Shown: positions 1-10,226 of the stretch, one piece after another
Layout: each line of letters begins with the position of its first letter
Numbering within the stretch: the first letter of the stretch is position 1
Virus record (IMG/VR): IMGVR_UViG_2690316311_000004
Location: 1-10,226 of that record
Strand: one strand, 5' to 3'
Origin: a virus
Lineage: Duplodnaviria > Heunggongvirae > Uroviricota > Caudoviricetes
DNA: 10,226 nt
The notes under the pieces: generated by a model
Databases searched by the model: none
The model's input: the letters and a program-made list of their open reading frames with translations, nothing else
Told to the model about the DNA's origin: nothing
Program-made: the position numbers and the translations under genes

Positions 1-541
1 ATACGTCGTGCCCGTCTTCCTGTAACTGGTTCAGCAGATTCATCAGCAGTGAGTTCTCCGTCAGGCCGAGAACACCAGACGGCGAATGAATCAGGCTGCG
101 GTAGCCGGGCTTCAGTGGGGCGCTGTATTCTTTTTTGTCTTCCAGCTTGATCGCCTCCATAATGGCGGGCATGAAGCCTGACAAGACCTTCTCCACTTTT
201 GTTTCTTGTTGTCTTAAACGTTTCTCGCATTCAATGAAGTAGCGTCGTACCTGACGACCTTTTTCGTTACGCTCGACCATTGCTAGTTCTTTGGCTGTAT
301 CGAGGGTGAGGTGGTACTCTTTGCGGTTGTGGCCGCCTCTACCAGATGTTTGCTTTCCCAAATTGGAAAGCAAAATATAGTCTTGATTTTCAATGAATTC
401 GTATTCTGAAATGCGATTTGTAATCCATGCTGCAAACACCTTTTTAACACCTAAAAAAGCGTGCAGATCGCGGGCATTGCAAAGTAGGGCTGTTTCGTTA
501 GATATAGTGCCGTTGAATACGGGGATGAGTTGACTGGTCAT
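1..541 (-). CDS. Phage antirepressor, AntA/KilAC-type (N-terminal ~180 codons; 3' end runs off the window start)
   Basis: Minus-strand ORF with ATG at 541-539 preceded by AAGGAGG (plus 547-553) 5 nt upstream; no stop before position 1. Translation [58 protein letters not shown]...[42 protein letters not shown] fits the AntA-type antirepressor N-terminal domain as I recall it. Not in the ORF track because truncated. Confidence 0.8.
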
Positions 542-570
542 GATGACCTCCTTTGAAGTTTTAGTTAGCA

Positions 571-593
571 ATCACCAGTTAGTAGCTGGTGAT
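571..593. promoter_or_regulatory. Perfect 8-bp inverted repeat ATCACCAG-ttagtag-CTGGTGAT about 30 bp upstream of the antirepressor start
   Basis: Visible; lies in the antirepressor promoter/5' leader region on the minus strand. Binding factor unknown. Confidence 0.35.
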
Positions 594-705
594 CGGGTGT
601 CAACTAGAGCCTTCAAAGACGCTCCGGGCATATTCCCCTTTTGGGTATTGTATTACGCCTCTCCACCCGACCTTTGTACGGATGTGACTATGCCAAATTG
701 CAGGC

Positions 706-735
706 ATAAAAAAGCCGCAAAGCTATCGGGTGCGG
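706..735 (-). terminator. Possible weak terminator ending the leftward operon
   Basis: Minus-strand RNA CCGCA-(11-nt loop)-UGCGG followed by CUUUUUUAUG; short stem and long loop. Confidence 0.3.
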
Positions 736-865
736 GTGACCGCTTTGAAGTTCTAGTGCGGTCAGTATGCGATAGCTCTGGCGGCATTGTCAAATCATGC
801 GCCACTGAGTCCAGCAATCTCTGCAATACCAATAGCGAGATAATCGCGATTCGTCAGGCGTGATT

Positions 866-1114
866 TTATTGCATATGTCTTAGCTCCACTGAAGTTGTGA
901 TTTTATATGGGTTGCCTTTTACCTCAATAACACGATGAGGATCATTTTTTAGCTCTTCCGTAATCTTCCGTAATCTTCTAACAGCTGAACTTCGGTGTTT
1001 ATAACGGTAAGTTACAGTTTCTTTTCTCTGCAATACCTCATCATTGCGGTACTTAGTCAAAACCATGACGACTTCAAACCTGACGCCGTTGTGTGCAACC
1101 ATAATCTGCTTCAT
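866..1114 (-). CDS. Small basic hypothetical protein (82 aa), translationally coupled to the upstream methyltransferase
   Basis: ATG at 1114-1112 overlaps the methyltransferase TGA (ATGA overlap); GGGAG about 9 nt upstream. Product MKQIMVAHNGVRFEVVMVLTKYRNDEVLQRKETVTYRYKHRSSAVRRLRKITEELKNDPHRVIEVKGNPYKITTSVELRHMQ is K/R-rich with no family I recognise. Contains a 10-bp tandem repeat that sets the C-terminal frame. The ORF track extends it to 1234, which I consider unlikely. Confidence 0.45.
   Translation of the reverse strand: MKQIMVAHNGVRFEVVMVLTKYRNDEVLQRKETVTYRYKHRSSAVRRLRKITEELKNDPHRVIEVKGNPYKITTSVELRHMQ
955..978. repeat. Tandem repeat of the 10-mer CTTCCGTAAT (2.4 copies) inside the 866..1114 ORF
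   Basis: Directly visible: cttccgtaat at 955-964 and 965-974, then cttc at 975-978. The period is not a multiple of 3, so copy number determines the reading frame of the last ~30 codons. Confidence 0.9.
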
Positions 1115-1761
1115 GCTGCACGCTCCCGCCCCTGGTTGTCTGTTGGTGACAGCGGAGCATTGCTGAATGCATTTGTTAATCCGCCAATATCCAACGCGTA
1201 TCCAGGGTGTAGTTGCACTGCCGGGTCTTCGCACTGATTACCCCAAACATCGAAACCATGAGACGACTGGCGGGCGAACAGTTCAATGCGAGAAACATCG
1301 CCTAACAATTGCACAAGTTTTTCACGAACGATATCTGGTTTTCTTGAATGCTCAAGCCGCGGTGCGGTAAATGACTGAACGATCCCTGCATTAATGCGCG
1401 TAGGTAGTTTTCCCTTTACCGCAAACAGGCAATCTTCACTATTGGCGCGAGTCATGTGCCCCATACCCATAACCAGTTTATCTGGTTGTCGACTACCACA
1501 TTTTATCCACGTGAAGCCCTTCATGGTCATCAGACGGAATCCCCAGGCTTCAACAACTTTTAGTGCTTCGAGTGGTTGTGTTGGCACCCACCACATGGCC
1601 AACAGACAGTTTTCATCGGCCAAATCCCACACAGGAAGGCGGCAGATATCCAGCACACTCATAACCGGATATTTAAAACCGGCACCGCGATTACCATCTG
1701 CGGCTTTGTCCCGGTATACCCAGGGTGGATCTGCATAGATTAGTGTGTATTTCTTAGTCAT
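1111..1761 (-). CDS. MT-A70-family (beta-class) N6-adenine DNA methyltransferase
   Basis: 216-aa ORF with ATG at 1761-1759. N-terminal LIYADPPWVY (DPPW catalytic motif) and C-terminal RIELFARQSSHGFDVWGNQ are characteristic of the MT-A70 family as recalled. Stop overlaps the start of the downstream small ORF. Confidence 0.85.
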   Translation of the reverse strand: MTKKYTLIYADPPWVYRDKAADGNRGAGFKYPVMSVLDICRLPVWDLADENCLLAMWWVPTQPLEALKVVEAWGFRLMTMKGFTWIKCGSRQPDKLVMGMGHMTRANSEDCLFAVKGKLPTRINAGIVQSFTAPRLEHSRKPDIVREKLVQLLGDVSRIELFARQSSHGFDVWGNQCEDPAVQLHPGYALDIGGLTNAFSNAPLSPTDNQGRERAA

Positions 1762-2053
1762 AAACCACCCCGCAACATCCTATGCCGCTATAGTCGCCAC
1801 GGCGAAGGCCGTTACCTTTTGTGATACATTGGTCCCTGCGAACCGCGATCCTTGCACGCTCAACATCACCAGAAGCAACATCCATACACTGAAGCCAAAG
1901 GTGGGCGGCAATGCGGAACTGCCCTTTTTTCTCTCTTTCAATCGCGCGTTTTTCGATCTCTATCGCCGCAGGAGTAACGGCAACAACCTTTGAAGGGCTG
2001 CGCATTGAAACCTTGTTCATGTGATATTTTTCAAGTCGGCTTAACTTTCTCAC
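1754..2053 (-). CDS. Hypothetical protein; start uncertain (GTG 2053, or ATG at 2020 or 2005)
   Basis: ORF overlaps the methyltransferase start by 8 nt, suggesting co-translation. The GTG at 2053 has no good SD; the ATG at 2005 has AAGG 5 nt upstream. No recognisable domain. Confidence 0.4.
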   Translation of the reverse strand: MRKLSRLEKYHMNKVSMRSPSKVVAVTPAAIEIEKRAIEREKKGQFRIAAHLWLQCMDVASGDVERARIAVRRDQCITKGNGLRRGDYSGIGCCGVVYD

Positions 2054-2162
2054 TTAATCCAACCATCTCTGAAAATTAATGCCAGCAGATAAAGCCATGC
2101 AGAAACAGAGGCCAGGAATAAGTACCATCCTGACCATTTGCTCCAGTGCCTTAGCAGCACAC

Positions 2163-2411
2163 TCATGCCGCGTTGCTCACGGGACGATATACACGTTGCT
2201 GAACAGGAGGTTTTTTACCCTGGAACTCTGCCGGGCTTGCTGCCTGACGTTCATCAAGCCAACGCTCAACTTCATCACGGTTCCATGCGCAGCGTTTATC
2301 GGTGATATACCAGCGTTTAGGAAATTCCCCTGCGCGCTCCATACGGTCGATAGTGCTCCATGACAGTGGCACCACCGCCAGGAGTTCCTTCTTACCTAAT
2401 GCACCTTTCAT
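2163..2411 (-). CDS. AlpA-family phage transcriptional regulator / excisionase-like HTH protein
   Basis: 82-aa ORF with ATG at 2411-2409 and AGAGAGG SD 6 nt upstream. LLAVVPLSWSTIDRMERAGEFPKRWYITDKRCAWNRDEVERWLDERQA matches the AlpA/Xis-type winged-helix pattern (S-STIYR-IK-G-FP-...W...EV-.W) from memory. Confidence 0.75.
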   Translation of the reverse strand: MKGALGKKELLAVVPLSWSTIDRMERAGEFPKRWYITDKRCAWNRDEVERWLDERQAASPAEFQGKKPPVQQRVYRPVSNAA

Positions 2412-2433
2412 AAATACCTCTCTTGGTTGCAGT

Positions 2434-2452
2434 GCGGCGCGCGTGGCGCCGC
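2434..2452. other. Perfect 7-bp GC-only inverted repeat (GCGGCGC-gcgtg-GCGCCGC) between the annealing-protein and AlpA-like genes
   Basis: Visible in the sequence; no T-run follows on either strand, so it is not a canonical intrinsic terminator. Confidence 0.4.
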
Positions 2453-2460
2453 GGTGGTGG

Positions 2461-3342
2461 TTACATAGATGTTTCGTTTAATTCTTCCCGACGAACGCTG
2501 TAAACGTCGGTGGCTTTTGCCAGCAGTTCGTCATCATCTGAAAGTTTTTGTGCAATGTATTTGTAAGCCTTATCCAGTTCGGAGACAGTGCTGTAATTCA
2601 TCGCTGCGCTGGTAAAGGCCATCAGCATTTCTTCTGGATCACGGCTATCCGCTTTACGCGTTTGCTCATCAGGCTTTTTCGCTGGTTTAGCGTTGATCAG
2701 ACTGTTCATTCCCGCAGCAGTGGTCGTTTGCGGAGTAATGTCTCGCTCAACGCGCGGTGCCGTTTCCTGTAATTCGTCAGGGGTGTAAACACCGAGAAGT
2801 ACATCAGGAGCGTGCAGGCGAGCCCATCGTTTCGTGCAAAGATAGGCAAGCTGCTGGCGCGGATCCTGTTCCCACAATGGAGAGTTACGCACTCCGGCTT
2901 GCGCCATACTGATGGTAAGCTCACGGGGTTCTGCTTCTCCTTTAAGAACTGCTGACACAGTTACCGTCAGATTCGGTGATTTATCTGTTTTGCCGTTAAC
3001 ATTCGACCAGTCACCGCTCCAGCGATAATTCAGGCGTGTCGCTAGCAGGCTGGAAGAGGATACGACCGCGTTTACCAACTGTGCTTCGTAGCCTAACGTT
3101 CCGTTTACCACATGCGTTTTCTGCGCCACGGCGAAAGGATTCATTCCCCACTGTGCCGCCTGCATGGTCACCGCCAGACAATCGGCAGGTTTGCCTTCAA
3201 GATGTTTCGGTACAGTCGCTTTGCTTTGTGACATCAACTCCGCGAAACGCACCAGTTGATTCATGCCCTCCGGGCTGAAGATTGCCGCAGCAGTACCTAC
3301 AGTTGCGCCTGGTTGTGATGTGATTGCGATATCATTGCTCAT
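2461..3342 (-). CDS. Single-strand annealing recombinase, Bet (Red-beta)/RecT superfamily
   Basis: 293-aa ORF whose ATG overlaps the exonuclease stop (ATGA). Segments MQAAQWGMNPFAVAQKTHVVNGTLGYEAQL, QQLAYLCTKRWARLHAPDVLLGVY and ERDITP parallel lambda Bet (ANQYGLNPW..., KAMIQCARLAFGFAGIY, ERDITP) as I recall it. Sits directly after an exonuclease gene. Confidence 0.85.
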   Translation of the reverse strand: MSNDIAITSQPGATVGTAAAIFSPEGMNQLVRFAELMSQSKATVPKHLEGKPADCLAVTMQAAQWGMNPFAVAQKTHVVNGTLGYEAQLVNAVVSSSSLLATRLNYRWSGDWSNVNGKTDKSPNLTVTVSAVLKGEAEPRELTISMAQAGVRNSPLWEQDPRQQLAYLCTKRWARLHAPDVLLGVYTPDELQETAPRVERDITPQTTTAAGMNSLINAKPAKKPDEQTRKADSRDPEEMLMAFTSAAMNYSTVSELDKAYKYIAQKLSDDDELLAKATDVYSVRREELNETSM

Positions 3343-4160
3343 ACGTACATATCCTGTTTACGTGCCCAGTCAGGGCGTTTAATAATTTCCACTCCGCCCC
3401 ACTCATCGTTGATGCGGCATTCGTGATAGGTATTCAGATCCCGGCGGAACAGAGCGTGCCCGGCATCGACATCCGGCGCATCCAGCTCGAACACGCGTAC
3501 CGGATACCGACCACAATCAATGCTTTCGCTCACGGCAAGAAAGAAAAAACCATGTGGCTGACCAGTAACCCTCATTGCGCCTTCGCGGTACATTGCGTCC
3601 TGCACGTGGTAGCGGAACTCCTCGATGTGGCGTGCAAAACGGTCCATATCTGCAACCTTTTTCACGTCGACGATCACGTTGTGCTCGTTCAGCCATTTGT
3701 CTGGACGAATTCGGCACAACTCACCCGTATCTTCATCGTTCCAGTACATTGATGCTTCGCAGTAACCATGTGCTTCCAACATCCAGCGTGCCGCCGGGTG
3801 AGCCATTGCGCTATCACGCATCAGCTCCAGTTTTCGCCACTGCTCTGCATCAAGTACCGAAATCCCCATATCCGCTACATCACGAATAAATGCCTCTTCG
3901 TCAGCTTTACCTTGTTTTGTCCGACGATCGAATTTCGGTGAAACGATGAAGCGTTTGTCAAACTCTCCAGGTTCCAGAAGCAGACAGTGCAGAGCAGTAC
4001 CCATGTCCAGTGCAGACTTCTTCTCTTCGTCTTCCGGAGCAGCCTTCACCCATTTCAGAAGGGCAGGGTTCTTAGCCACCATATCTAGCTGCGACTTACT
4101 CACGCCGTCACCGGCGTGGTAGTCCTCGTTGCTGATATCGAAATAAATTCCCGGATTCAT
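3339..4160 (-). CDS. Exonuclease VIII-like (RecE C-terminal type) PD-(D/E)XK nuclease, recombination partner of the annealing protein
   Basis: 273-aa ORF. N-terminal GIYFDISNEDYH, a PDKW...VIVDVKKV (D...D-x-K) block and HVQDAMYREG (Q-x3-Y) fit the PD-(D/E)XK fold of prophage exodeoxyribonuclease VIII-like proteins (recalled). Coupled to ORFs on both sides by ATGA overlaps. Confidence 0.8.
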   Translation of the reverse strand: MNPGIYFDISNEDYHAGDGVSKSQLDMVAKNPALLKWVKAAPEDEEKKSALDMGTALHCLLLEPGEFDKRFIVSPKFDRRTKQGKADEEAFIRDVADMGISVLDAEQWRKLELMRDSAMAHPAARWMLEAHGYCEASMYWNDEDTGELCRIRPDKWLNEHNVIVDVKKVADMDRFARHIEEFRYHVQDAMYREGAMRVTGQPHGFFFLAVSESIDCGRYPVRVFELDAPDVDAGHALFRRDLNTYHECRINDEWGGVEIIKRPDWARKQDMYV

Positions 4161-4456
4161 GCCGCGTCCCTCTGCCCATCAAGCTGATCCGCCAGCTCCC
4201 AGCGGGCGATAATTGCCATTGCCTCTCGCCGATAGGCATCCATCAGTTCTTCGAACTCAGGGCTGTCTTTAGCAGCCTCCAGCACTTCCTGACGAACGCC
4301 TTTGCCTGTTACAACGTCAAAAGTTGAGGCCAGTTGATGAAGCCGGATACTCTCAATCAGTTCGACTTGTCGGTCATATAGCTGTTCTGACAGGCGGTAG
4401 TCCTTGTCGAATGCCAGCATGATTTTTTGAAGATTTTTCTGCTGATTAACGTTCAT
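4157..4456 (-). CDS. Hypothetical protein occupying the gam-like position upstream of the exonuclease
   Basis: ATG at 4456-4454 (MNVNQQKNLQKIM...) with GGGAGGG SD 8 nt upstream. The ORF-track start at 4471 lies inside that SD, so I prefer 4456. No confident family assignment; not obviously lambda Gam. Confidence 0.6.
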   Translation of the reverse strand: MNVNQQKNLQKIMLAFDKDYRLSEQLYDRQVELIESIRLHQLASTFDVVTGKGVRQEVLEAAKDSPEFEELMDAYRREAMAIIARWELADQLDGQRDAA

Positions 4457-4458
4457 TA

Positions 4459-4611
4459 TCAGCCCTCCCATATCTCGTTATCGTTGGCCACATCGCGAGC
4501 TTCTTTGCTGACGAAAGCCCACTTAATACCTTCCTGTAAGGTGCGGAACTTCCAGCTCATGAATCCGCATGCAGTAACGCAGTACCAACCGTTGATGATT
4601 TTCCACTGCAT
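4459..4611 (-). CDS. Small ORF (50 aa) at the kil-like first position of the leftward operon
   Basis: ATG at 4611-4609 with GAGG SD 9 nt upstream. Product MQWKIINGWYCVTACGFMSWKFRTLQEGIKWAFVSKEARDVANDNEIWEG. Its stop lies in the SD of the next gene. Absent from the ORF track, presumably under a length cut-off. Confidence 0.35.
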   Translation of the reverse strand: MQWKIINGWYCVTACGFMSWKFRTLQEGIKWAFVSKEARDVANDNEIWEG

Positions 4612-4667
4612 AACTTGTTACCTCGGCCTGTTATCGTTGAGGTAATAATTATGCGTATCTGGTTTGA

Positions 4668-4673
4668 TGTCAA
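4668..4673 (-). promoter_or_regulatory. Candidate -35 hexamer (TTGACA on the minus strand) of a pL-like leftward early promoter
   Basis: Perfect TTGACA on the minus strand about 55 nt upstream of the 4611 start. The -10 is ambiguous (CATAAT/TAATTA at about 4645-4652). An operator palindrome lies just upstream at 4693-4707. Confidence 0.35.
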
Positions 4674-4692
4674 TAGATATGAGTTAAAAAAA

Positions 4693-4707
4693 TTACCCAT
4701 TAGGTAA
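4693..4707. promoter_or_regulatory. Operator-like palindrome TTACCC-att-AGGTAA (copy 1 of 6)
   Basis: Visible palindrome, extendable to ATTACCCATTAGGTAAT (4692-4708). Sits between the repressor-gene terminator and the leftward promoter. Confidence 0.6.
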
Positions 4708-4717
4708 TCGAATAGGC

Positions 4718-4744
4718 AATAAAAAAGCCGCCTTCTGGCGGCTT
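4718..4744 (-). terminator. Intrinsic terminator of the repressor gene (minus strand)
   Basis: Minus-strand RNA reads AAGCCGCC-AGAA-GGCGGC followed by TTTTTTATT: a 6-7 bp GC stem with 4-nt loop and U-run, 20 nt downstream of the repressor stop. Confidence 0.75.
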
Positions 4745-4764
4745 ACTTACTGAAAAATATGATT

Positions 4765-5349
4765 TTATTGTTTGTTTTTTTCGTTCTGGTTGATGACAAA
4801 TTCAATGTAACTTTCGATCTTTGCTTTCTCGGTTTCGGGTAACAATGCGTAGCGCGAGCGATCATAGTTGATGGTCGCAGGGTCGTGCGGGTGAATCAGT
4901 AATTCATAGCCGTGACGCCCGAATGCGGATGCAACATTCTCCAGGGTGGAAATGGAAACGCTGACCTCATTGTTTAACAGGCGGCTGATTGTCACTTGGG
5001 CGACGCCGGATGCGCGGTGTAGTTTTCCCTGCGTTGAAAGGTCGCGGCTTTCGCTCATCCAGCGTTCCAGGTTGTGAGCCGCCAGCTGACCTATATCGCT
5101 CGGGCCGACAGGCTGAAAACCCTCCTGAGAAAGCGAGCGATCAATATCAAGCCAGTTACGGGGTTTATTGGCGGCAGCTTCAATTTTTCGTGCAACCTGG
5201 TCGCCGATAACCTTCTTGCCAAGAGCCCAGCGGTTTACCAGATTTGCCTGAGTTCCAAGTTTTTCTGCCATCCGCGTCTGAACACCATTGAATTCACGGT
5301 CGATCAAGTCGTTGAGATTTTGCCTGCGGACGTCCTGGATACTTTTCAT
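4765..5349 (-). CDS. Prophage repressor candidate with two tandem HTH (XRE/CI-type) domains and no recognisable S24 peptidase domain
   Basis: 194-aa ORF divergent from the Cro-like gene. First HTH around QTRMAEKLGTQANLVNRWALGKKVIGDQVARKI; second around LHRASGVAQVTISRLLNNEVSVSISTLENVASAFG. No Ala-Gly/Ser-Lys autocleavage module seen. Poor SD, consistent with a near-leaderless maintenance transcript. Confidence 0.8.
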   Translation of the reverse strand: MKSIQDVRRQNLNDLIDREFNGVQTRMAEKLGTQANLVNRWALGKKVIGDQVARKIEAAANKPRNWLDIDRSLSQEGFQPVGPSDIGQLAAHNLERWMSESRDLSTQGKLHRASGVAQVTISRLLNNEVSVSISTLENVASAFGRHGYELLIHPHDPATINYDRSRYALLPETEKAKIESYIEFVINQNEKNKQ

Positions 5350-5372
5350 TTTCTGGAAAATCGCCTCATATA

Positions 5373-5391
5373 TGAATCAGTAGATGATTCA
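5373..5391. promoter_or_regulatory. Unique perfect palindrome TGAATCA-gtaga-TGATTCA about 25 bp upstream of the repressor start
   Basis: 7-bp arms with 5-bp spacer, visible in the sequence. A different motif from the recurrent TTACC/GGTAA palindrome and not repeated elsewhere in the window. Confidence 0.4.
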
Positions 5392-5404
5392 ATTTAAAGC
5401 AATA

Positions 5405-5419
5405 TTACCCAACAGGTAA
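5405..5419. promoter_or_regulatory. Operator-like palindrome TTACCC-aac-AGGTAA (copy 2 of 6), OR-like region
   Basis: Visible palindrome in the divergent repressor/cro intergenic region. Confidence 0.6.
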
Positions 5420-5449
5420 ATGCACCTCATAGGTAACTATCCTTGATTT

Positions 5450-5478
5450 TTGTTACCTTATGGGTGAATATTTATTAT
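5450..5478 (+). promoter_or_regulatory. Candidate pR-like promoter for the Cro-like gene (-35 TTGTTA 5450-5455, 17-bp spacer, -10 TATTAT 5473-5478)
   Basis: Hexamers read by eye; an alternative -35 is TTGATT at 5443-5448. Operator copy 3 lies between -35 and -10. Confidence 0.4.
5453..5467. promoter_or_regulatory. Operator-like palindrome TTACCT-tat-GGGTGA (copy 3 of 6, one mismatch)
   Basis: Visible; overlaps the proposed pR spacer. Confidence 0.5.
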
Positions 5479-5503
5479 CTGAAATAAATATCAGGCAATA
5501 GCT

Positions 5504-5734
5504 ATGAGCGATAACGGACATTTCGATTTCAAAAAGCACTGGCTTGCACTTACTCCGGATGAGCGTGAAGCCTTCGCACAGGAAGCCGGAACAACGAGTC
5601 ACTATATCCAGACTCACTTAACAGGTAAGCGCAAAATGCCAGGTAAGGTATTGATGAATGGGCTTTTTAAAGCCTGTAAAACAAGACAATGGCTGCGCTC
5701 AAAAGCAGAACTGGCATACTTCTTCTACTCATGA
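5504..5734 (+). CDS. Cro-like / YdaS-like small HTH regulator
   Basis: 76-aa ORF divergent from the repressor. HTH-like segment EAFAQEAGTTSHYIQTHLTGKRKMPGKVL. Followed by an intrinsic terminator. Weak SD (AGG 8 nt upstream). Confidence 0.65.
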   Translation: MSDNGHFDFKKHWLALTPDEREAFAQEAGTTSHYIQTHLTGKRKMPGKVLMNGLFKACKTRQWLRSKAELAYFFYS

Positions 5735-5756
5735 TATCCAGCTACAACCCTCTGTA

Positions 5757-5782
5757 GACCGCCACCCGGCGGTCTTTTCATA
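5757..5782 (+). terminator. tR1-like intrinsic terminator after the Cro-like gene
   Basis: GACCGCC-accc-GGCGGTC followed by TTTTCATATCTATT: 7-bp GC-rich stem, 4-nt loop, T-rich tail. Confidence 0.65.
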
Positions 5783-5789
5783 TCTATTC

Positions 5790-5804
5790 GTACCTCAAAG
5801 GTAA
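5790..5804. promoter_or_regulatory. Operator-like palindrome GTACCT-caa-AGGTAA (copy 4 of 6, one mismatch)
   Basis: Visible; immediately downstream of the tR1-like terminator. Confidence 0.45.
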
Positions 5805-5884
5805 TAAAAAACCAAATCTGGTTGATCTTTTTTTTGTGTCAGCACAAAATGACCGTAATCCCAATACTAATAACAGGGCTTACC

Positions 5885-6085
5885 ATGGAAATCATTACAC
5901 GTATTGATGCCGCAAAGCGCGGACTTAAACGCTACTACACCGGAAAACCATGTAAGCATGGACATGACAGTGAACGCTGGGTTTACAACGGACACTGTGT
6001 TGAGTGCACCATGGAATCAAACCGTCGCATCAGGGCAGAGATTAAGCAGATCATGATTAATTCCTCCCCACAACACTCAAGCTGA
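5885..6085 (+). CDS. Small Cys/His-cluster (zinc-ribbon-like) hypothetical protein in the cII-like position
   Basis: Product MEIITRIDAAKRGLKRYYTGKPCKHGHDSERWVYNGHCVECTMESNRRIRAEIKQIMINSSPQHSS has C-x-H-G-H ... H-C-x-E-C spacing suggestive of metal binding. Start ambiguous: ATG 5885 (weak SD), ATG 5849, or the ORF-track TTG at 5822. Confidence 0.5.
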   Translation: MEIITRIDAAKRGLKRYYTGKPCKHGHDSERWVYNGHCVECTMESNRRIRAEIKQIMINSSPQHSS

Positions 6086-6100
6086 TAGCGGAGATTAATC

Positions 6101-6934
6101 ATGAGCAGACATGCAACAGATTGGGCCTGGGAGACAGATCCAGGTAGCTCATCATTAAAGCTCATACTGCTCTCGATGGCTGACAGAGCCGATGAATATA
6201 ACCTCTGCTACCCCAGCATAGAACGCCTCGTTAAAGACACTTGCCTGAATAAAAAAACCGTGCAGGCCGGGCTTATATCGCTCATGAAAATGGGGCTTAT
6301 TTCAGATACCGGAGAGAGAAAGGGAGCGACGAAAAGAGTGCGGGTTTTCTCTCTTAATATAACCAAAAACGGGAACATTAAAGGCAACCGGGAAGGGGGT
6401 AATGAACCCGAAAACGGTAATGTTACCGAAAACGGTAATGTTACCGAAAACGGGAATATACCCAAAAACGGGATGTTGAATGATCCCAAAAACGGGATGT
6501 TGAATGATCCCAAAAACGGGATCCAGAACCAGTCATATAACCAGTCATTTAACCAAGAGAGGGAGAGCAGGACAAAAAGCGGGGATTCTGTGCCTCATGA
6601 CCCCGGCGCAAACAACGCCGTGATGAATAACTTTGTTCCTCCTGGTGGGCCAGGGCAATTAGGCAAATTTGTCATGCATGAACAATGGCAACCATCAGAT
6701 GACTTTCTTCGGAAAAGCTCATTGCAGGGGATCTACCTGGACAGTCTGCCAACGGCACAGGAACTTGCAGAGTTCAGAATTTACTGGATGGCTGAGGGTA
6801 AGGCATACCATCAGGCGCAGTGGGAGCAGAAGCTGGCAAGGCGGCTGCAGATTAGCAGACAGAAGCAATCAACATTACCTGATAACAACGTTCCGCACTG
6901 GAACAGCCCTGAAGCATGGGAGGATTTCTTGTGA
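6101..6934 (+). CDS. Replication initiator (O-like): N-terminal winged-helix replication HTH domain, iteron-encoded linker, C-terminal DnaT-like domain
   Basis: 277-aa ORF with GGAG SD 8 nt upstream. N-terminus WAWETD...SSLKLILLSMADRADEYNLCYPSIERLVKDTCLNKKTVQAGLISLMKMGLIS is replication-initiator HTH-like. C-terminus GKFVMHEQWQPSDDFLRKSSL...ELAEFRIYWMAEGKAYHQAQWEQKLARRLQISR closely parallels E. coli DnaT (GKFAMYPDWQPDADFIRL...[29 protein letters not shown], recalled). Stop overlaps the P start (GTGA). Confidence 0.85.
   Translation: MSRHATDWAWETDPGSSSLKLILLSMADRADEYNLCYPSIERLVKDTCLNKKTVQAGLISLMKMGLISDTGERKGATKRVRVFSLNITKNGNIKGNREGGNEPENGNVTENGNVTENGNIPKNGMLNDPKNGMLNDPKNGIQNQSYNQSFNQERESRTKSGDSVPHDPGANNAVMNNFVPPGGPGQLGKFVMHEQWQPSDDFLRKSSLQGIYLDSLPTAQELAEFRIYWMAEGKAYHQAQWEQKLARRLQISRQKQSTLPDNNVPHWNSPEAWEDFL
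6361..6552. repeat. Origin-like iteron array inside the O-like gene
   Basis: Seven copies of a CC(C/G)AAAACGG(G) core at 6363-6373, 6407-6417, 6426-6435, 6444-6454, 6461-6472, 6485-6496 and 6509-6520, with 18-bp then 24-bp periodicity. Several are palindromic (ATCCCaaaaacGGGAT, GTTACCgaaaacGGTAA), resembling lambda ori iterons (TCCCTCAAAACGAGGGA, recalled). Followed by a tandem 12-mer CCAGTCAT(A/T)TAA x2 at 6529-6552. Confidence 0.7.
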
Positions 6935-7716
6935 ACAACGTTTTTACCGCAATACAAAACCGTGACGGAGAAGCTCTTTCTCGCATGTCAGGTTATGAGC
7001 ATCAGTACGTCAACAATGACAACGTAGTGAACATGTCAGCAGAGAGGCTTGTTGATGCCCTTTTCAAACAGTTGAAACAACTGTTTCCGGCGGCAGTGGT
7101 AACCAACCTGAAGACGCCAGAGCAGGAAGTTGCTGCAAAACAGCAGTGGATTGCTGCGTTTGCCGAAGGGGGGATCCGAACCCGTGAACAGGTTTCTGCT
7201 GGTATGCGCCACGCCCGCGCCAGTGATTCTCCGTTCTGGCCGTCGCCAGGGCAATTCATCAAGTGGTGCAAAGACAGCAAGATGGTTCTTGGCGTCACCA
7301 TTGACGATGTGATGACGGAGTTTCACCGGTACAGCAAGGAAAAAAGTTTATATCCTGGTGGTCCCGAAAGATTCCCGTGGCGGCATCCGGTTATGTACTG
7401 GGTCGTATGTGATACCCGCCGTGCAATGTATCAGCGCCAGCTTAGCGAGATAGAGGTTGAGAAACACGCGCGCAGGCTGCTCGATGATTGGGCGAAAAAG
7501 GTGGCTTCCGGACAGCAGATACCCGATCCGGTGATCAGCATACAGGCAAAGCCAGAACCCATGAGTACGCCTCCGGACACAGGGAGAGACGTTTACCATC
7601 CACCAGGGCGAAGTTTCGGGTGCATGCCTAACGCCGCCACCCTTGGGGGAATAACACCGGCGCAGTGGCTGATGGAGGAATACAGGCGAGGAAAGGCGGA
7701 AGGATTTATCAAGTAA
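6931..7716 (+). CDS. Replication protein P homologue (DnaB helicase loader), lambda P family
   Basis: From GTG 6931 (GGAGGA SD 6 nt upstream) the product VNNVFTAIQNRDGEA... aligns with lambda P MKNIAAQMVNFDREQ...; QQWIAAFAEGGIRTREQVSAGMRHARASDSPFWPSPGQFIKWCKD matches lambda P RQWVLAFRENGITTMEQVNAGMRVARRQNRPFLPSPGQFVAWCRE (recalled). The ORF-track ATG at 6916 is the alternative start. Confidence 0.9.
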   Translation: MNNVFTAIQNRDGEALSRMSGYEHQYVNNDNVVNMSAERLVDALFKQLKQLFPAAVVTNLKTPEQEVAAKQQWIAAFAEGGIRTREQVSAGMRHARASDSPFWPSPGQFIKWCKDSKMVLGVTIDDVMTEFHRYSKEKSLYPGGPERFPWRHPVMYWVVCDTRRAMYQRQLSEIEVEKHARRLLDDWAKKVASGQQIPDPVISIQAKPEPMSTPPDTGRDVYHPPGRSFGCMPNAATLGGITPAQWLMEEYRRGKAEGFIK

Positions 7717-7721
7717 TACCA

Positions 7722-7741
7722 GCGCGATAGCGCATTTTTTT
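7722..7741 (+). terminator. Weak tR2-like terminator after P
   Basis: GCGC-gata-GCGC followed by ATTTTTTT, 6 nt after the P stop. The stem is only 4 bp, so confidence is low. Confidence 0.35.
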
Positions 7742-7753
7742 ACGTTTCGATAA

Positions 7754-7768
7754 TTACCTGTTAGGTAA
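7754..7768. promoter_or_regulatory. Operator-like palindrome TTACCT-gtt-AGGTAA (copy 5 of 6; perfect, extends to ATTACCTGTTAGGTAAT)
   Basis: Visible; upstream of the candidate promoter -35 at 7788. Confidence 0.6.
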
Positions 7769-7787
7769 TAAAATATTCTAAAATCTA

Positions 7788-7816
7788 TTGATTTCGTGTC
7801 TTATGTGGTTTTTAAT
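7788..7816 (+). promoter_or_regulatory. Candidate sigma70 promoter for the DUF1064/Ea22 block (-35 TTGATT 7788-7793, 17-bp spacer, -10 TTTAAT 7811-7816)
   Basis: Hexamers read by eye; flanked by operator copies 5 (upstream) and 6 (overlapping the -10 and start region). Confidence 0.45.
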
Positions 7817-7830
7817 TACCTCAGGGGTAA
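7816..7830. promoter_or_regulatory. Operator-like palindrome TTACCT-cag-GGGTAA (copy 6 of 6)
   Basis: Visible; ends 3 nt before the ATG at 7834 and overlaps the proposed -10. Confidence 0.55.
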
Positions 7831-7833
7831 ATC

Positions 7834-8178
7834 ATGAGAAAACAGATACAGGCTCTTGGTCGACTCAAAACAGGCCAGATGAACAAAACAGAATCTGCGT
7901 ATTGCCAGCACCTTGAGCTGCGTAAACGTGCAGGAGAAATCGTCTGGTATCGATTTGAGGGTATCAAGCTTCGGTTAGCTGACAACACGTTCTATACGCC
8001 CGATTTTGCTGTGATGCTCGCCACCGGCGAGATGGAACTGCACGAAGTGAAAGGTTTCTGGACCGACGACGCCAGGGTGAAAACCAAAGTCGCCGCAGAT
8101 CAGTATCCGTTCCGAATCATCGGGGTAACGGTTAAACCAAAGAAAGCAGGTGGTGGCTGGAATATCGAAGAGTTCTGA
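7834..8178 (+). CDS. DUF1064-like phage protein (putative nuclease-fold protein)
   Basis: 114-aa ORF with AGGGG SD 6 nt upstream. YTPDF...ELHEVKGFWT resembles the D...E-x-K-type core I associate with the phage DUF1064 family; assignment from memory. Confidence 0.65.
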   Translation: MRKQIQALGRLKTGQMNKTESAYCQHLELRKRAGEIVWYRFEGIKLRLADNTFYTPDFAVMLATGEMELHEVKGFWTDDARVKTKVAADQYPFRIIGVTVKPKKAGGGWNIEEF

Positions 8179-8239
8179 ATCGACGATCTTTTTAGTTATC
8201 AATGTAATCAATAAGTTATGTGGATAAGCGAGGGTAAAG

Positions 8240-8872
8240 ATGGAAAGTAATATCAAAGGGTTAGTTGCCGCCGGGCATGAGATGGCTTCGGAACTGAAAG
8301 CAGAATGTGGTGCCGTTGATATGCGCAGTGTGGCAAAGCTGATCAGCGATTTGGCAACGCAACTGGAAGTGCAACTGGTGCGTGCTAATGCGCTGGCCGA
8401 AGACCAGCAGAAAGCGATTGAGTCAATTAAGCAGGCTGATTCGGCTGTTAAGTTGGCACACGAGAAGTTTTCGGCGCTGGCGGCGGAGAATGCGGGGCTG
8501 AAACATGCAATGGCTGTAACTCTTGAGCATGTGTCGGTCACGGATGCAGGTCAGGCCGGAGTTGCTGCAATGATTATCAACGATGCCCTGCACCACAGCG
8601 AAACTCCAGCCACCGATGCTTTTCTGGCTGAAATTCGTGCGGCGGCTCGCAACGAGGGGATTAACTATACCGCAAGCCGTCTTGCTGCTGCTTTCAACCA
8701 CGGATTTATCAATAAGTCTTTACGTGAAGTTTTCGACGTTACGCGCATGATTCTGTCAGCGAAAGAAGAGTTGGCTAATGAACCGCACCCGATTGATGGC
8801 CTGTCCGGTGAATATGCGGAGAAATCCCTTGAAGAATGGGCGGAACAGATTCGCAAAGGAGCTGACAAGTGA
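8240..8872 (+). CDS. Ea22-like (ead/Ea22-like family, tentative) phage protein, paralogue A
   Basis: 210-aa ORF with a coiled-coil-like middle (ALAAENAGLK) and a C-terminal domain (ETPATDAFLAEIRAAARNEGINYTASRLAAAFNHGFI...RMILSAKEE) shared with the ORF at 9288..10073. The family name is a tentative recollection. Confidence 0.6.
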   Translation: MESNIKGLVAAGHEMASELKAECGAVDMRSVAKLISDLATQLEVQLVRANALAEDQQKAIESIKQADSAVKLAHEKFSALAAENAGLKHAMAVTLEHVSVTDAGQAGVAAMIINDALHHSETPATDAFLAEIRAAARNEGINYTASRLAAAFNHGFINKSLREVFDVTRMILSAKEELANEPHPIDGLSGEYAEKSLEEWAEQIRKGADK

Positions 8873-9279
8873 AGAGGATGATTTTTGTGGCGGCATTGCT
8901 GACCATTACCCAACAGGCGCAGGCTTCAGCAGTTATTGTGGCATCTACCGCCGCGACCACGGCTGCTGTAGCTGCTGCGAACTCTGCGAATATCGCAAAC
9001 CAACAGTCACAGCGTGCTGCCAATGCATCAGCCAGTGTTCACCCAATCGCCATTAAGGCCAGCAAGAAAAATATAGGTTTCATAACATGCGGCAAACGTT
9101 CTGACGAGGCTGTAGGTTCACTTGGATGTACGGTATATGGGGATAGTGAGAGTAGAGAAATTCCATGGAAAACGTGGCCCGGATATGTTCTCGGATCGAA
9201 GCTCACTGCCAGCTATGAAGTAAACGCCGTATCGTTTGATCACTATAACGGCGTGGCAACGGTCTATTTTGCATATTGA
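8869..9279 (+). CDS. Small secreted/periplasmic protein with Sec-type signal peptide; function unknown
   Basis: GTG at 8869 overlaps the upstream stop (GTGA), with AAGGAG 7 nt upstream. N-terminus MKRMIFVAALLTITQQAQA has n-region KR, an 11-residue hydrophobic core and an AQA-S cleavage-like site, followed by an Ala/Thr/Ser-rich linker and a ~70-aa C-terminal domain with two Cys. Confidence 0.6.
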   Translation: MKRMIFVAALLTITQQAQASAVIVASTAATTAAVAAANSANIANQQSQRAANASASVHPIAIKASKKNIGFITCGKRSDEAVGSLGCTVYGDSESREIPWKTWPGYVLGSKLTASYEVNAVSFDHYNGVATVYFAY

Positions 9280-9287
9280 GGCTCCGC

Positions 9288-10073
9288 ATGAAATTCTCCA
9301 AATTTTCTGAGTTGGTGAATCGTATTTTGTCCAACAACCACAGCCATCGTCGCGATATGGATGTAACGATCGTTGTTCATTCGCCTGGCAGCATTGGTTC
9401 AACACCCTCAGTTGAGGTTCAGTCAATTCACGCTGGTTTTGATTGGGATTCCGGGAAAGTGCTGATTTTCCCAGCACAGCCACTGACTACGCTAACACCA
9501 GAACAGATTACTGATATTACTGATAGTGTGCGCAAAGGTCAGTCCTGGCACGCATATCAGGAATATAAGAAGCATAAAGAGCAGTTGGAAAAATTATCGA
9601 TTGAACTTGATACCGCAAAACAGCGCATTGCAGAGCTGGAGGGTAATCGCGCGGCGCTGGCTGCGGAGAATGCGAGACTGAAGGCGATATGTGAGGATCG
9701 CCGCACGTTCATTATGAATGGCGTGCAGCTTGGTTTTATCAAAGTGCCAACAGTGGAAATAGATCCAGCTCTTGAAACAATTCGTATCGCCCTATCACCA
9801 CAAAAAACCACTCCTGCGACCGACACTTTCCTGGATGAAGTGAAGACTGAAGCACGCAAGGAGGGCGCTTACTTTGTGGCGAACAGAATGCTGGCTGCTT
9901 GGGAAGCTGGTTTTATTGATGATACTGCGAAGAACGCCGCGGATATTGCCCGGATGATTCTTACCTCTACTGAGTTTATGGCTAATGCGCGGGAAGGCGA
10001 TTTTGACCGCTCATTCTCTGATGGCGTTCTCGAAGATATCGCTGACCAGCTTCGAAAAGGAGGCAAACAGTGA
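9288..10073 (+). CDS. Ea22-like (tentative) phage protein, paralogue B
   Basis: ATG at 9288 with GAGG 6 nt upstream (the ORF track uses TTG at 9276). Coiled-coil IAELEGNRAALAAENARLK and C-terminal TTPATDTFLDEVKTEARKEGAYFVANRMLAAWEAGFI...RMILTSTEF parallel paralogue A. Confidence 0.6.
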   Translation: MKFSKFSELVNRILSNNHSHRRDMDVTIVVHSPGSIGSTPSVEVQSIHAGFDWDSGKVLIFPAQPLTTLTPEQITDITDSVRKGQSWHAYQEYKKHKEQLEKLSIELDTAKQRIAELEGNRAALAAENARLKAICEDRRTFIMNGVQLGFIKVPTVEIDPALETIRIALSPQKTTPATDTFLDEVKTEARKEGAYFVANRMLAAWEAGFIDDTAKNAADIARMILTSTEFMANAREGDFDRSFSDGVLEDIADQLRKGGKQ

Positions 10074-10226
10074 GCAAGATTGACTATCAGGCACTGCGCG
10101 AGGCGGCAGAAGCAATAAAAGTCGTGGCAACGCCGCAAAAATTGCTTGCGTTTCGTATGAAAGTCACACCGCAGGTTGTGCTGGTGCTGCTGGATGAACT
10201 AGAAGCTAAAAACAAACGCATTACAG
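10070..10226 (+). CDS. Partial ORF (5' end only), hypothetical phage protein
   Basis: GTG at 10070 overlaps the upstream stop (GTGA), with AGGAGG 6 nt upstream. Reads MSKIDYQALREAAEAIKVVATPQKLLAFRMKVTPQVVLVLLDELEAKNKRIT... with no stop before the window end. Confidence 0.45.
   Translation, partial: MSKIDYQALREAAEAIKVVATPQKLLAFRMKVTPQVVLVLLDELEAKNKRIT

Follow-up and report, generated by a model that had tools for sequence, protein, structure and literature searches.

The window analysed here, a stretch of 10,226 nucleotides (positions 1 to 10,226 of the IMG/VR virus record IMGVR_UViG_2690316311_000004), is part of a prophage of phiV10/epsilon15 type (genus Uetakevirus). It contains an array of iteron-like units (6360-6522) followed by three tandem 12-mers (6526-6561), all located within the gene for the prophage's own replication initiator (6101..6934, + strand, 277 amino acids). 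Array and 12-mers together are probably the replication origin of this prophage, a reading to which we assign a probability of about 0.75. The repeats themselves, their occurrence together with the N-terminal domain of the initiator across hosts, their conservation at the DNA level and the variation in their copy number are direct observations. Since the flexible linker that joins the two initiator domains is encoded by the repeats as well, the sequence serves two purposes. Overall, this is a design of lambda type with variation and not a new kind of system.

Seven cores of the form CC(C/G/A)AAAACGG lie on the same strand between 6363 and 6519, with successive spacings of 45, 18, 18, 18, 24 and 24 base pairs (bp). 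A search for CCSAAAACGG with at most one mismatch gave eight matches in the 10.2-kb window, seven of which are these + strand cores (starting at 6363, 6408, 6426, 6444, 6462, 6486 and 6510); the mean in shuffled sequences was 1.4, and none of 200 shuffles reached eight. Tandem Repeats Finder identified the stretches 6398-6471 (period 18, 4.1 copies, 85% matches), 6461-6522 (period 24, 2.6 copies, 100% matches) and 6527-6555 (period 12, 2.4 copies, 94% matches). By both measures, the seven units described in an earlier note on this DNA are real and clustered.

The units can be written as 16-bp sites of 5-6-5 type (xxxCC-N6-GGxxx) on the + strand. Unit 1 (TAACC-AAAAAC-GGGAA, 6360..6375) is distal and lies 45 bp ahead of unit 2. 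Units 2 (AACCC-GAAAAC-GGTAA, 6405..6420), 3 (TTACC-GAAAAC-GGTAA, 6423..6438) and 4 (TTACC-GAAAAC-GGGAA, 6441..6456) make up the 18-bp series, while unit 5 (TACCC-AAAAAC-GGGAT, 6459..6474) opens the 24-bp series, which continues with units 6 (ATCCC-AAAAAC-GGGAT, 6483..6498) and 7 (ATCCC-AAAAAC-GGGAT, 6507..6522), the latter being nearest to the 12-mers. The 16-mer of unit 6 recurs in prophages of Superficieibacter and Phaseolibacter. Several of the units had been called palindromes, and this holds for units 3, 6 and 7, which are perfect (3 of 7); the remaining four are partly symmetric, matching at 2-4 of the 5 arm positions (4 in unit 4). The regular spacing of 18 and then 24 bp that had been described applies to units 2-7 but not to unit 1, which is set apart by a 45-bp gap containing an apparent decayed unit (AACC-GGGAAG-GGGGTAA, 6385-6400; gene positions 290-300), the most polymorphic spot of the array among close relatives. 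The suggestion that the two periodicities reflect two initiator-binding registers found no relative or statistic in its favour; they are two unit lengths around the same 12-bp core.

Three tandem 12-mers, GAACCAGTCATA / TAACCAGTCATT / TAACCAAGAGAG (6526..6561, + strand), begin 3 bp past unit 7, one with a GAACC head and two with TAACC heads at a period of 12 bp. Their presence behind the array had been reported correctly, and they are better described in the phase given here. This block is a candidate opening/loading region, apparently the version in this window of the family-wide GAAYC 12/13-mer block described below. Because the heads are one GAACC and two TAACC, the window fails a strict test for GAAYC pairs, and a scan for GAAYC-N8-RAAYC in the window alone gave no more matches than expected by chance. 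The assignment is based on Tandem Repeats Finder and family comparison, not on the strict GAAYC pattern. Within the 277-residue protein, the array occupies the region between amino acids 87 and 141, i.e. between the two domains, where it encodes the repetitive linker peptide (...TKNGNIKGNREGGNEPENGNVTENGNVTENGNIPKNGMLNDPKNGMLNDPKNGIQNQSYNQSFNQ...) that had been claimed.

An Rfam scan of the array returned nothing. Three terminator-like hairpins with T runs are called on the minus strand at 6433-6512, antisense to the array. They arise from pairing between facing arms of neighbouring palindromic units (right arm of the first, left arm of the second), with the A5 centre appearing as a T run. Although they could block antisense transcription into the origin, they are probably a by-product of adjacent palindromic arms. 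Unit 3 (TTACCGAAAACGGTAA, 6423-6438) also holds a perfect papillomavirus E2 binding site (ACCGN4CGGT). A full-text search with the unit sequences gave matches only to papillomavirus E2 sites and primers, as ACCGAAAACGGT is an E2 site, and a link to papillomaviruses was rejected as coincidence.

The array travels with the N-terminal domain of the initiator. This domain region (amino acids 1-87, 6101..6361, + strand) contains a Pfam HTH_36 domain (amino acids 18-67, E 1.9e-10) and belongs to a large family (3,775 members), with 567 clusters at 50% identity (E <= 1e-10). Diverged relatives of 33-87% identity were compared, sampled from Vibrio, Edwardsiella, Acinetobacter and Burkholderia phages, from PPompW prophages and from 27 prophage loci of other species; array-bearing relatives include Proteus and Desulfovibrionaceae, and identity to the window domain is 39-87% in the 35 array-carrying relatives. 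Nearly all of the diverged relatives possess a similar array right behind the N-terminal domain, whatever the C-terminal domain. Among the 27 prophage loci, the array is absent from two (L099 and L118), and the contig of a third (L113) ends before the array position. At the protein level, at least three matching peptide motifs occur within amino acids 81-190 in 91 of 120 diverse representatives of the 50% clusters. C-terminal domains vary widely: Edwardsiella phage Edno5 has a lambda-O C-terminus and a P gene, EPP-1 has a Phg_2220_C domain, and the Acinetobacter phages have a domain with no family assignment followed by a DnaB-like helicase, and all of these keep the array. PPompW prophages have a DnaT-like C-domain. 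The converse case is Enterobacter phage Tyrion: its initiator has the DnaT-like C-domain and its P gene is 80% identical, but the N-domain is unrelated and the initiator gene lacks the array. The array thus follows the N-domain and not the C-domain or the loader, as expected if the N-domain reads the array, and we infer that amino acids 1-87 are the iteron reader.

Some individual relatives show rearrangements around the array. The Edno5 initiator (L004, 1501-2343) consists of an N-domain and iterons of the window type (ATCCCAAAATTGGGAT) and GAAYC repeats, followed by the lambda O right-hand ori sequence and C-terminal domain and then by the P gene. It is a natural hybrid, with the recombination joint just past the 12/13-mers, near 1900-1960. 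Such a position is a classic lambdoid module boundary. At two loci, L114 (Methylophilaceae) and L116 (a Methylobacter metagenome-assembled genome), the frame stops right after the GAAYC repeats (about 1201-1620), leaving N-domain and array as a separate short open reading frame (ORF). The gene of Vibrio phage H8 (L003, 1501-1968) is truncated within the array when compared with its sibling H20. The linker of Tyrion (L123, 757-783) contains a 7-bp tandem, GGATCAG, present three times (GGATCAGGGATCAGGGATCAGGGA), which may be the repeat element of that initiator itself.

Several features of the diverged arrays are conserved as nucleotides and not as residues. Ahead of the A/T centre, NCC codons (ACC or TCC) were counted 22 times, as against 4 for CCN codons except CCC (CCA, CCG or CCT); it is therefore the CC dinucleotide that is conserved, not proline. 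The centre varies among AAAAAC, AAAATT, AAATTT and AATTTT, so that the encoded residue switches radically between N, I and F while the A/T content is kept. For the three positions on either side of CC...GG, complementarity was seen in 151 of 315 cells, compared with 108 +/- 8 in shuffles, none of 5000 of which reached the observed value, and all three pair in 19% of sites, compared with 4.3% of control sites. Array regions show a 3.4-fold enrichment of perfect 5+5 inverted repeats separated by 6 bp. Lineages have arms of their own in which the symmetry is kept (ATCCC/GGGAT, GTTCC/GGAAC, GTACC/GGTAC, GTGCC/GGCAC and GTCCC/GGGAC).

The layout behind the array is conserved as well. At 25 of the 35 loci, the last unit is followed by a 3-bp gap and then by two or three GAAYC-headed repeats at intervals of 10-14 bp, in most cases 12 or 13; only two such pairs were present in 81.9 kb of flanks. 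A 13-bp period shifts the reading frame, and the same GAAYC motif is therefore read in all three codon registers, for example as cGG AAT C.., aaG AAC C.. and GAA TCT in Acinetobacter. Occurrence of the block in three registers points to conservation at the DNA level. The HTH_36-type O of the Stx2 phage Min27 also has a GAAYC block, whereas lambda does not.

Near-identical prophages differ in the number of units. Comparison of copy number across related prophages had been suggested in the earlier note, and 80 IMG/VR loci were fetched for it, of which 78 could be parsed. The number of exact cores per locus ranges from 4 to 9, the commonest form having six cores spaced 45, 18, 18, 24 and 24 bp (55 loci), while the seven-core form of the window was found once. 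Both 18-bp and 24-bp units vary in number, and repeat number is almost the sole difference among the initiator protein variants of these prophages. Expansion and contraction of the array are therefore real, which bears out the idea of a recent expansion.

Point variation was analysed in 44 distinct same-length genes of close relatives, filtered for register. Seventeen of the 20 variable sites in the N-domain are third codon positions. No third position varies in the three 24-bp units and the 12-mers (0 of 34), as against 33 of 210 in the rest of the gene (Fisher p = 0.0065), and third positions are free of polymorphism throughout the stretch corresponding to 6459-6559. Variation is highest in the distal part of the array (8 of 27 third positions), and constraint on the 18-bp units seems weaker than on the 24-bp units.

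How the origin might work can be outlined in four steps (binding, distortion, opening and DnaB delivery), all of which we infer by analogy with lambda. The winged-helix HTH_36 N-domain, probably as a dimer, would bind the 16-bp units of the form xxxCC-(A/T-rich 6)-GGxxx, with the three 24-bp-spaced units beside the 12-mers being essential and the 18-bp units accessory. The A5 tracts in the unit centres, together with bound protein, would bend and stress the DNA. The duplex would then open in the adjoining GAACC/TAACC 12-mer block, which would replace the strongly AT-rich tract of lambda. Finally, the DnaT-like C-domain may hold the single-stranded DNA (ssDNA), dock the P-like protein that carries host DnaB, or do both, so that the helicase would be loaded there. 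For comparison, O dimers of lambda bind the iterons and the duplex opens beside them, and in vitro only those iterons nearest to the AT-rich tract are needed (PMC7466680). The stronger constraint on units 5-7 fits this need for tract-proximal iterons. As a matter of speculation, a DnaT-like ssDNA-binding domain and sequence-specific 12-mers may compensate for the lack of a strong AT-rich tract.

A number of points weigh against the origin reading. A strong AT-rich unwinding tract was sought beside the iterons and not found. The 12-mer block, with about 35% GC, lies inside the least stable 60-mer of the gene (start 6497), but this 60-mer is only among the least stable 8% of such windows in the 10-kb stretch, and intergenic DNA at 7734-7800, the least stable of the window, is far less stable than the array. 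No DnaA boxes occur near the array, the two matches in the window (1503 and 8219) being at chance level; the lambda origin likewise needs no DnaA box. Dyad symmetry is partial, not only in the window with its three perfect units of seven but also among relatives, about half of which lack any perfect 5-6-5 site. Relatedness among many comparison loci, especially those from Acinetobacter, means that counts overstate independence. Homogenisation of repeats through unequal exchange could also reduce polymorphism in the proximal units, which weakens the third-position test and makes its result supportive and not decisive. Direct homology between the N-domain and lambda O could not be established: BLASTP gave nothing meaningful, and hhalign gave weak alignments (E 0.013 and 0.005, probability 3-7%), though in a register in which, for either protein, the wing is immediately followed by the first iteron. 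Finally, a literature search whose coverage left out older subscription papers and replication-module reviews found no experimental report on an origin of phiV10, epsilon15 or the N-domain family.

Some of the same facts would suit an array that binds the initiator for control only, through titration, handcuffing, incompatibility or autoregulation, with unwinding and helicase loading taking place elsewhere, for example in the AT-rich intergenic region at about 7720-7830 after the P gene. Such a role would accord with the mild instability of the array beside that of 7734-7800, with the highly variable copy number and relaxed appearance of the distal units, and with the finding that some iterons of Stx phages are weakly bound in vitro, yet required for replication (PMC7466680). 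It is nevertheless unlikely. The palindromes at 7754-7830 are of another family, TTACC-N5-GGTAA, and look like repressor operators and not like initiator sites because the same family is also present at operator-like regions flanking the repressor gene; the GAAYC 12/13-mer block, at a constant distance of 3 bp behind the last unit, looks like a second half that completes a composite origin; and in lambda and P22 the annotated origin occupies the corresponding position in the initiator gene. Still less probable is the view that the repeats are a slippage-prone, low-complexity protein linker with no function as DNA. Every unit keeps the reading frame, copy number shifts by 18 or 24 bp at a time (6 or 8 amino acids) besides interleaved duplications, many single amino-acid variants are tolerated, and the segment has no confident fold in a single-sequence model, itself uninformative overall (mean predicted local distance difference test score 36.8), all of which a linker would explain. 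It would not explain the conservation of nucleotides over residues, seen in the NCC codons, the A/T centre, the GAAYC registers, the dyad flanks and the proximal block without synonymous variation, or the fact that the array tracks the N-domain across phyla and is gone when the N-domain is replaced.

The 18-bp units (TTACC-GAAAAC-GGTAA) could alternatively be weak sites for the phage repressor or Cro that couple immunity to origin use, since their arms are identical to those of seven operator-like palindromes, TTACC-N5-GGTAA, in the window. We consider this very improbable: the spacer is 6 bp and not 5, the unit arms vary among near-identical prophages (gene positions 325, A/C, and 318, T/G), and the perfect match is found in one unit only, a coincidence expected about once in 64 given three free arm positions. 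The 15-bp palindromes themselves, allowing at most one mismatch, are far in excess of chance (seven against 0.18 expected; 0 of 200 shuffles reach seven). Two are located left of the repressor gene (4631-4645 and 4693-4707), two between the repressor and cro-like genes (5405-5419 and 5453-5467), one after the cro-like gene (5790-5804), and two in the AT-rich spacer past the P gene (7754-7768 and 7816-7830), around a promoter-like site at 7747-7774. They are probably operators for repressor and Cro, and a third region under such control would then lie 3' of the replication genes.

The closest parallels to the proposed origin are found in lambda and the Stx phages (933W, P27), whose iterons likewise occupy a central position in the initiator gene, separating an N-terminal DNA-binding domain from the C-domain. 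All comparative tests run agree with the lambda-like arrangement of an origin inside the initiator gene that had been proposed, and it remains the probable one. The window units have an A-tract centre and, in part, the dyad symmetry of the lambda units; as in lambda, a P-family loader gene follows immediately 3', and the module is located downstream of cro-like and cII-like genes. The likeness to the lambda iterons that had been pointed out is real at the sequence level (ATCCCTC-AAAAC-GAGGGAT in lambda, ATCCC-AAAAAC-GGGAT in the window). Seven units are indeed more than the four of lambda, but this is not unusual, the Stx phages having six (PMC7466680). The window units are 16 bp long against 19 bp in lambda, and are tandem duplicates in one frame, whereas spacings of 20, 24 and 23 bp place those of lambda in different frames. 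A GAACC/TAACC 12-mer block stands where lambda has its strongly AT-rich tract.

The proteins also differ. The name O-like, used for this initiator in the earlier note, is justified by layout but not by domains, as the N-domain is HTH_36 and not Phage_rep_O, and the C-domain resembles DnaT instead of the C-terminus of lambda O. The window initiator has no Pfam match to Phage_rep_O (PF04492), which is matched by lambda O (E 6e-36) and P22 gp18 (E 7e-38), and no match to the lambda-O C-terminus families phrog_277 and phrog_2357, which Edno5 does match. Through their N-terminal parts, the window initiator and lambda O both match phrog_678 and phrog_345, and published HHpred results assign the N-terminus of lambda O to HTH_36 (PMC5509034). 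Shared PHROG families and this assignment suggest common ancestry of the two initiators.

P22 (gene 18/ori/gene 12) has its origin annotated inside the initiator gene as well. Its iterons, TTTACC-AGATC-GGTAAA (L122, 353-497), have arms equal to those of window unit 3, an 18-bp unit, and its last unit, TTTACCGAATCAGTCAAAC, contains GAATCAGTCA, which also occurs in the 12/13-mers of the family. Unlike the window protein, gp18 is a true member of Phage_rep_O, a DnaB-type helicase follows in place of P, and the iteron spacer is 5 bp. The shared GAATCAGTCA and arms may be a trace of common ancestry of origins served by Phage_rep_O and HTH_36 proteins. Iteron plasmids (RK2, pPS10, F and others) and the 13-mers of the oriC unwinding element resemble the window in having direct arrays of initiator sites beside short opening repeats of 12/13 bp, and Rep proteins are reported to bind one strand of the opening repeats as well (PMC4081077). 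The window differs from the iteron plasmids in that the proposed origin lies within coding sequence, the 12-mers are not AT-rich, and the initiator has no match to Rep_3 or a WH1-WH2 initiator domain in Pfam or NCBIfam.

A further parallel is DopC/DopE, a lambdoid O/P pair that was domesticated in Cellvibrionales and some Oceanospirillales and has been put forward as a third kind of matchmaker for bacterial helicases (Brezellec et al. 2017, PMC5509034). It shares with the window a protein with HTH_36 and DnaT C-domain whose gene directly precedes that of a lambda-P-family protein. Finding dopC to be free of iterons, the authors concluded that it is no longer an origin, and read DnaT_C as a substitute for lambda-O features in the domesticated gene (PMC5509034). 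The window pair, in contrast, is located in a prophage and has a full iteron array; it is a phage form and not DopCE itself. Because the phage has the same architecture together with iterons, the phage initiator probably possessed its DnaT-like domain before domestication took place. Similarity to E. coli DnaT, the primosomal protein of replication restart, is confined to the C-terminal 85 residues (E about 1e-20); the N-terminal part of the window protein is a sequence-specific helix-turn-helix domain, and the gene is one component of an initiator/loader module in a phage.

A broader proposal, which we put forward tentatively and rate at somewhat less than an even chance, is that these initiators share a previously undescribed composite origin, consisting of CC-(A/T)6-GG dyad iterons, a 3-bp gap and two or three GAAYC 12/13-mers. 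It would be common to HTH_36 initiators of Gamma-, Beta- and Alphaproteobacteria and Desulfovibrionaceae, whatever their C-domain or helicase partner. GAAYC would be a sequence-specific opening/loading element, read as ssDNA by the initiator or a host factor and not merely AT-rich, and the HTH_36-DnaT_C/P module of phiV10 type would be the phage form that was domesticated to DopC/DopE with loss of iterons. The literature search, with the same coverage as above, found no account of the layout of iterons and GAAYC repeats or of iterons of HTH_36 initiators.

The inspected records of the phiV10/epsilon15 (Uetakevirus) group carry no origin annotation, and the present analysis places a likely one for this group. 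It offers a testable rule for origins in a large N-domain family with differing helicase-recruiting domains, namely CC-(A/T)6-GG units followed by GAAYC 12/13-mers. It also provides an iteron-bearing phage counterpart for DopC/DopE, which bears on domestication and on the role of the DnaT-like domain, and the polymorphism in unit copy number supplies natural variants for the effect of iteron number and spacing on initiation.

The initiator gene is 100% identical to its counterpart in E. coli 2015C-4944, and phiV10 and related phages show 96-97.5% identity to the window across the initiator-P region. Of 5426 complete E. coli genomes, 424 (about 8%) carry a homologue of the gene. The gene, taken from the ORF list, encodes the HTH_36 N-domain, the repeat-encoded linker and a DnaT-like ssDNA-binding C-domain; it matches PHROG 1032 'replication initiation protein' (E 2e-110), and the identical RefSeq gene is labelled 'DnaT-like ssDNA-binding domain-containing protein'. 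Pfam identifies 'DnaT DNA-binding domain' (DnaT) at amino acids 190-258 (E 1.2e-15). The C-terminal domain region (amino acids 186-271, 6656..6913, + strand) is supported by phmmer against PDB, in which the C-terminal 85 residues match the E. coli DnaT chains 9zbt_D, 6aep_A and 4ou6_A (E 7e-21 to 5e-20), and by a partial match to NCBIfam PRK02854 (85 bits against a cut-off of 201 bits).

The lambda-P-family helicase loader gene (6931..7716, + strand, with the RefSeq start) matches Pfam Phage_lambda_P (E 1.7e-56) and PHROG 109 'P-like helicase loader', and its GTG start shares GTGA with the stop codon of the initiator gene. Located 5' of the initiator are a cI-like repressor gene (4765-5349, minus strand), a cro-like gene and a small gene in the cII position. 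The initiator/P pair is in the early-right operon of the prophage, near repressor, RecT and terminase genes, and the order repressor, cro-like, cII-position, initiator and P is that of an early-right operon of lambdoid type. Positions 583-672 on the minus strand, located amid the early-left prophage genes, match the Rfam family sRNA-Xcc1 (RF02221) with 62.9 bits against a gathering threshold of 53 (E 9e-10).

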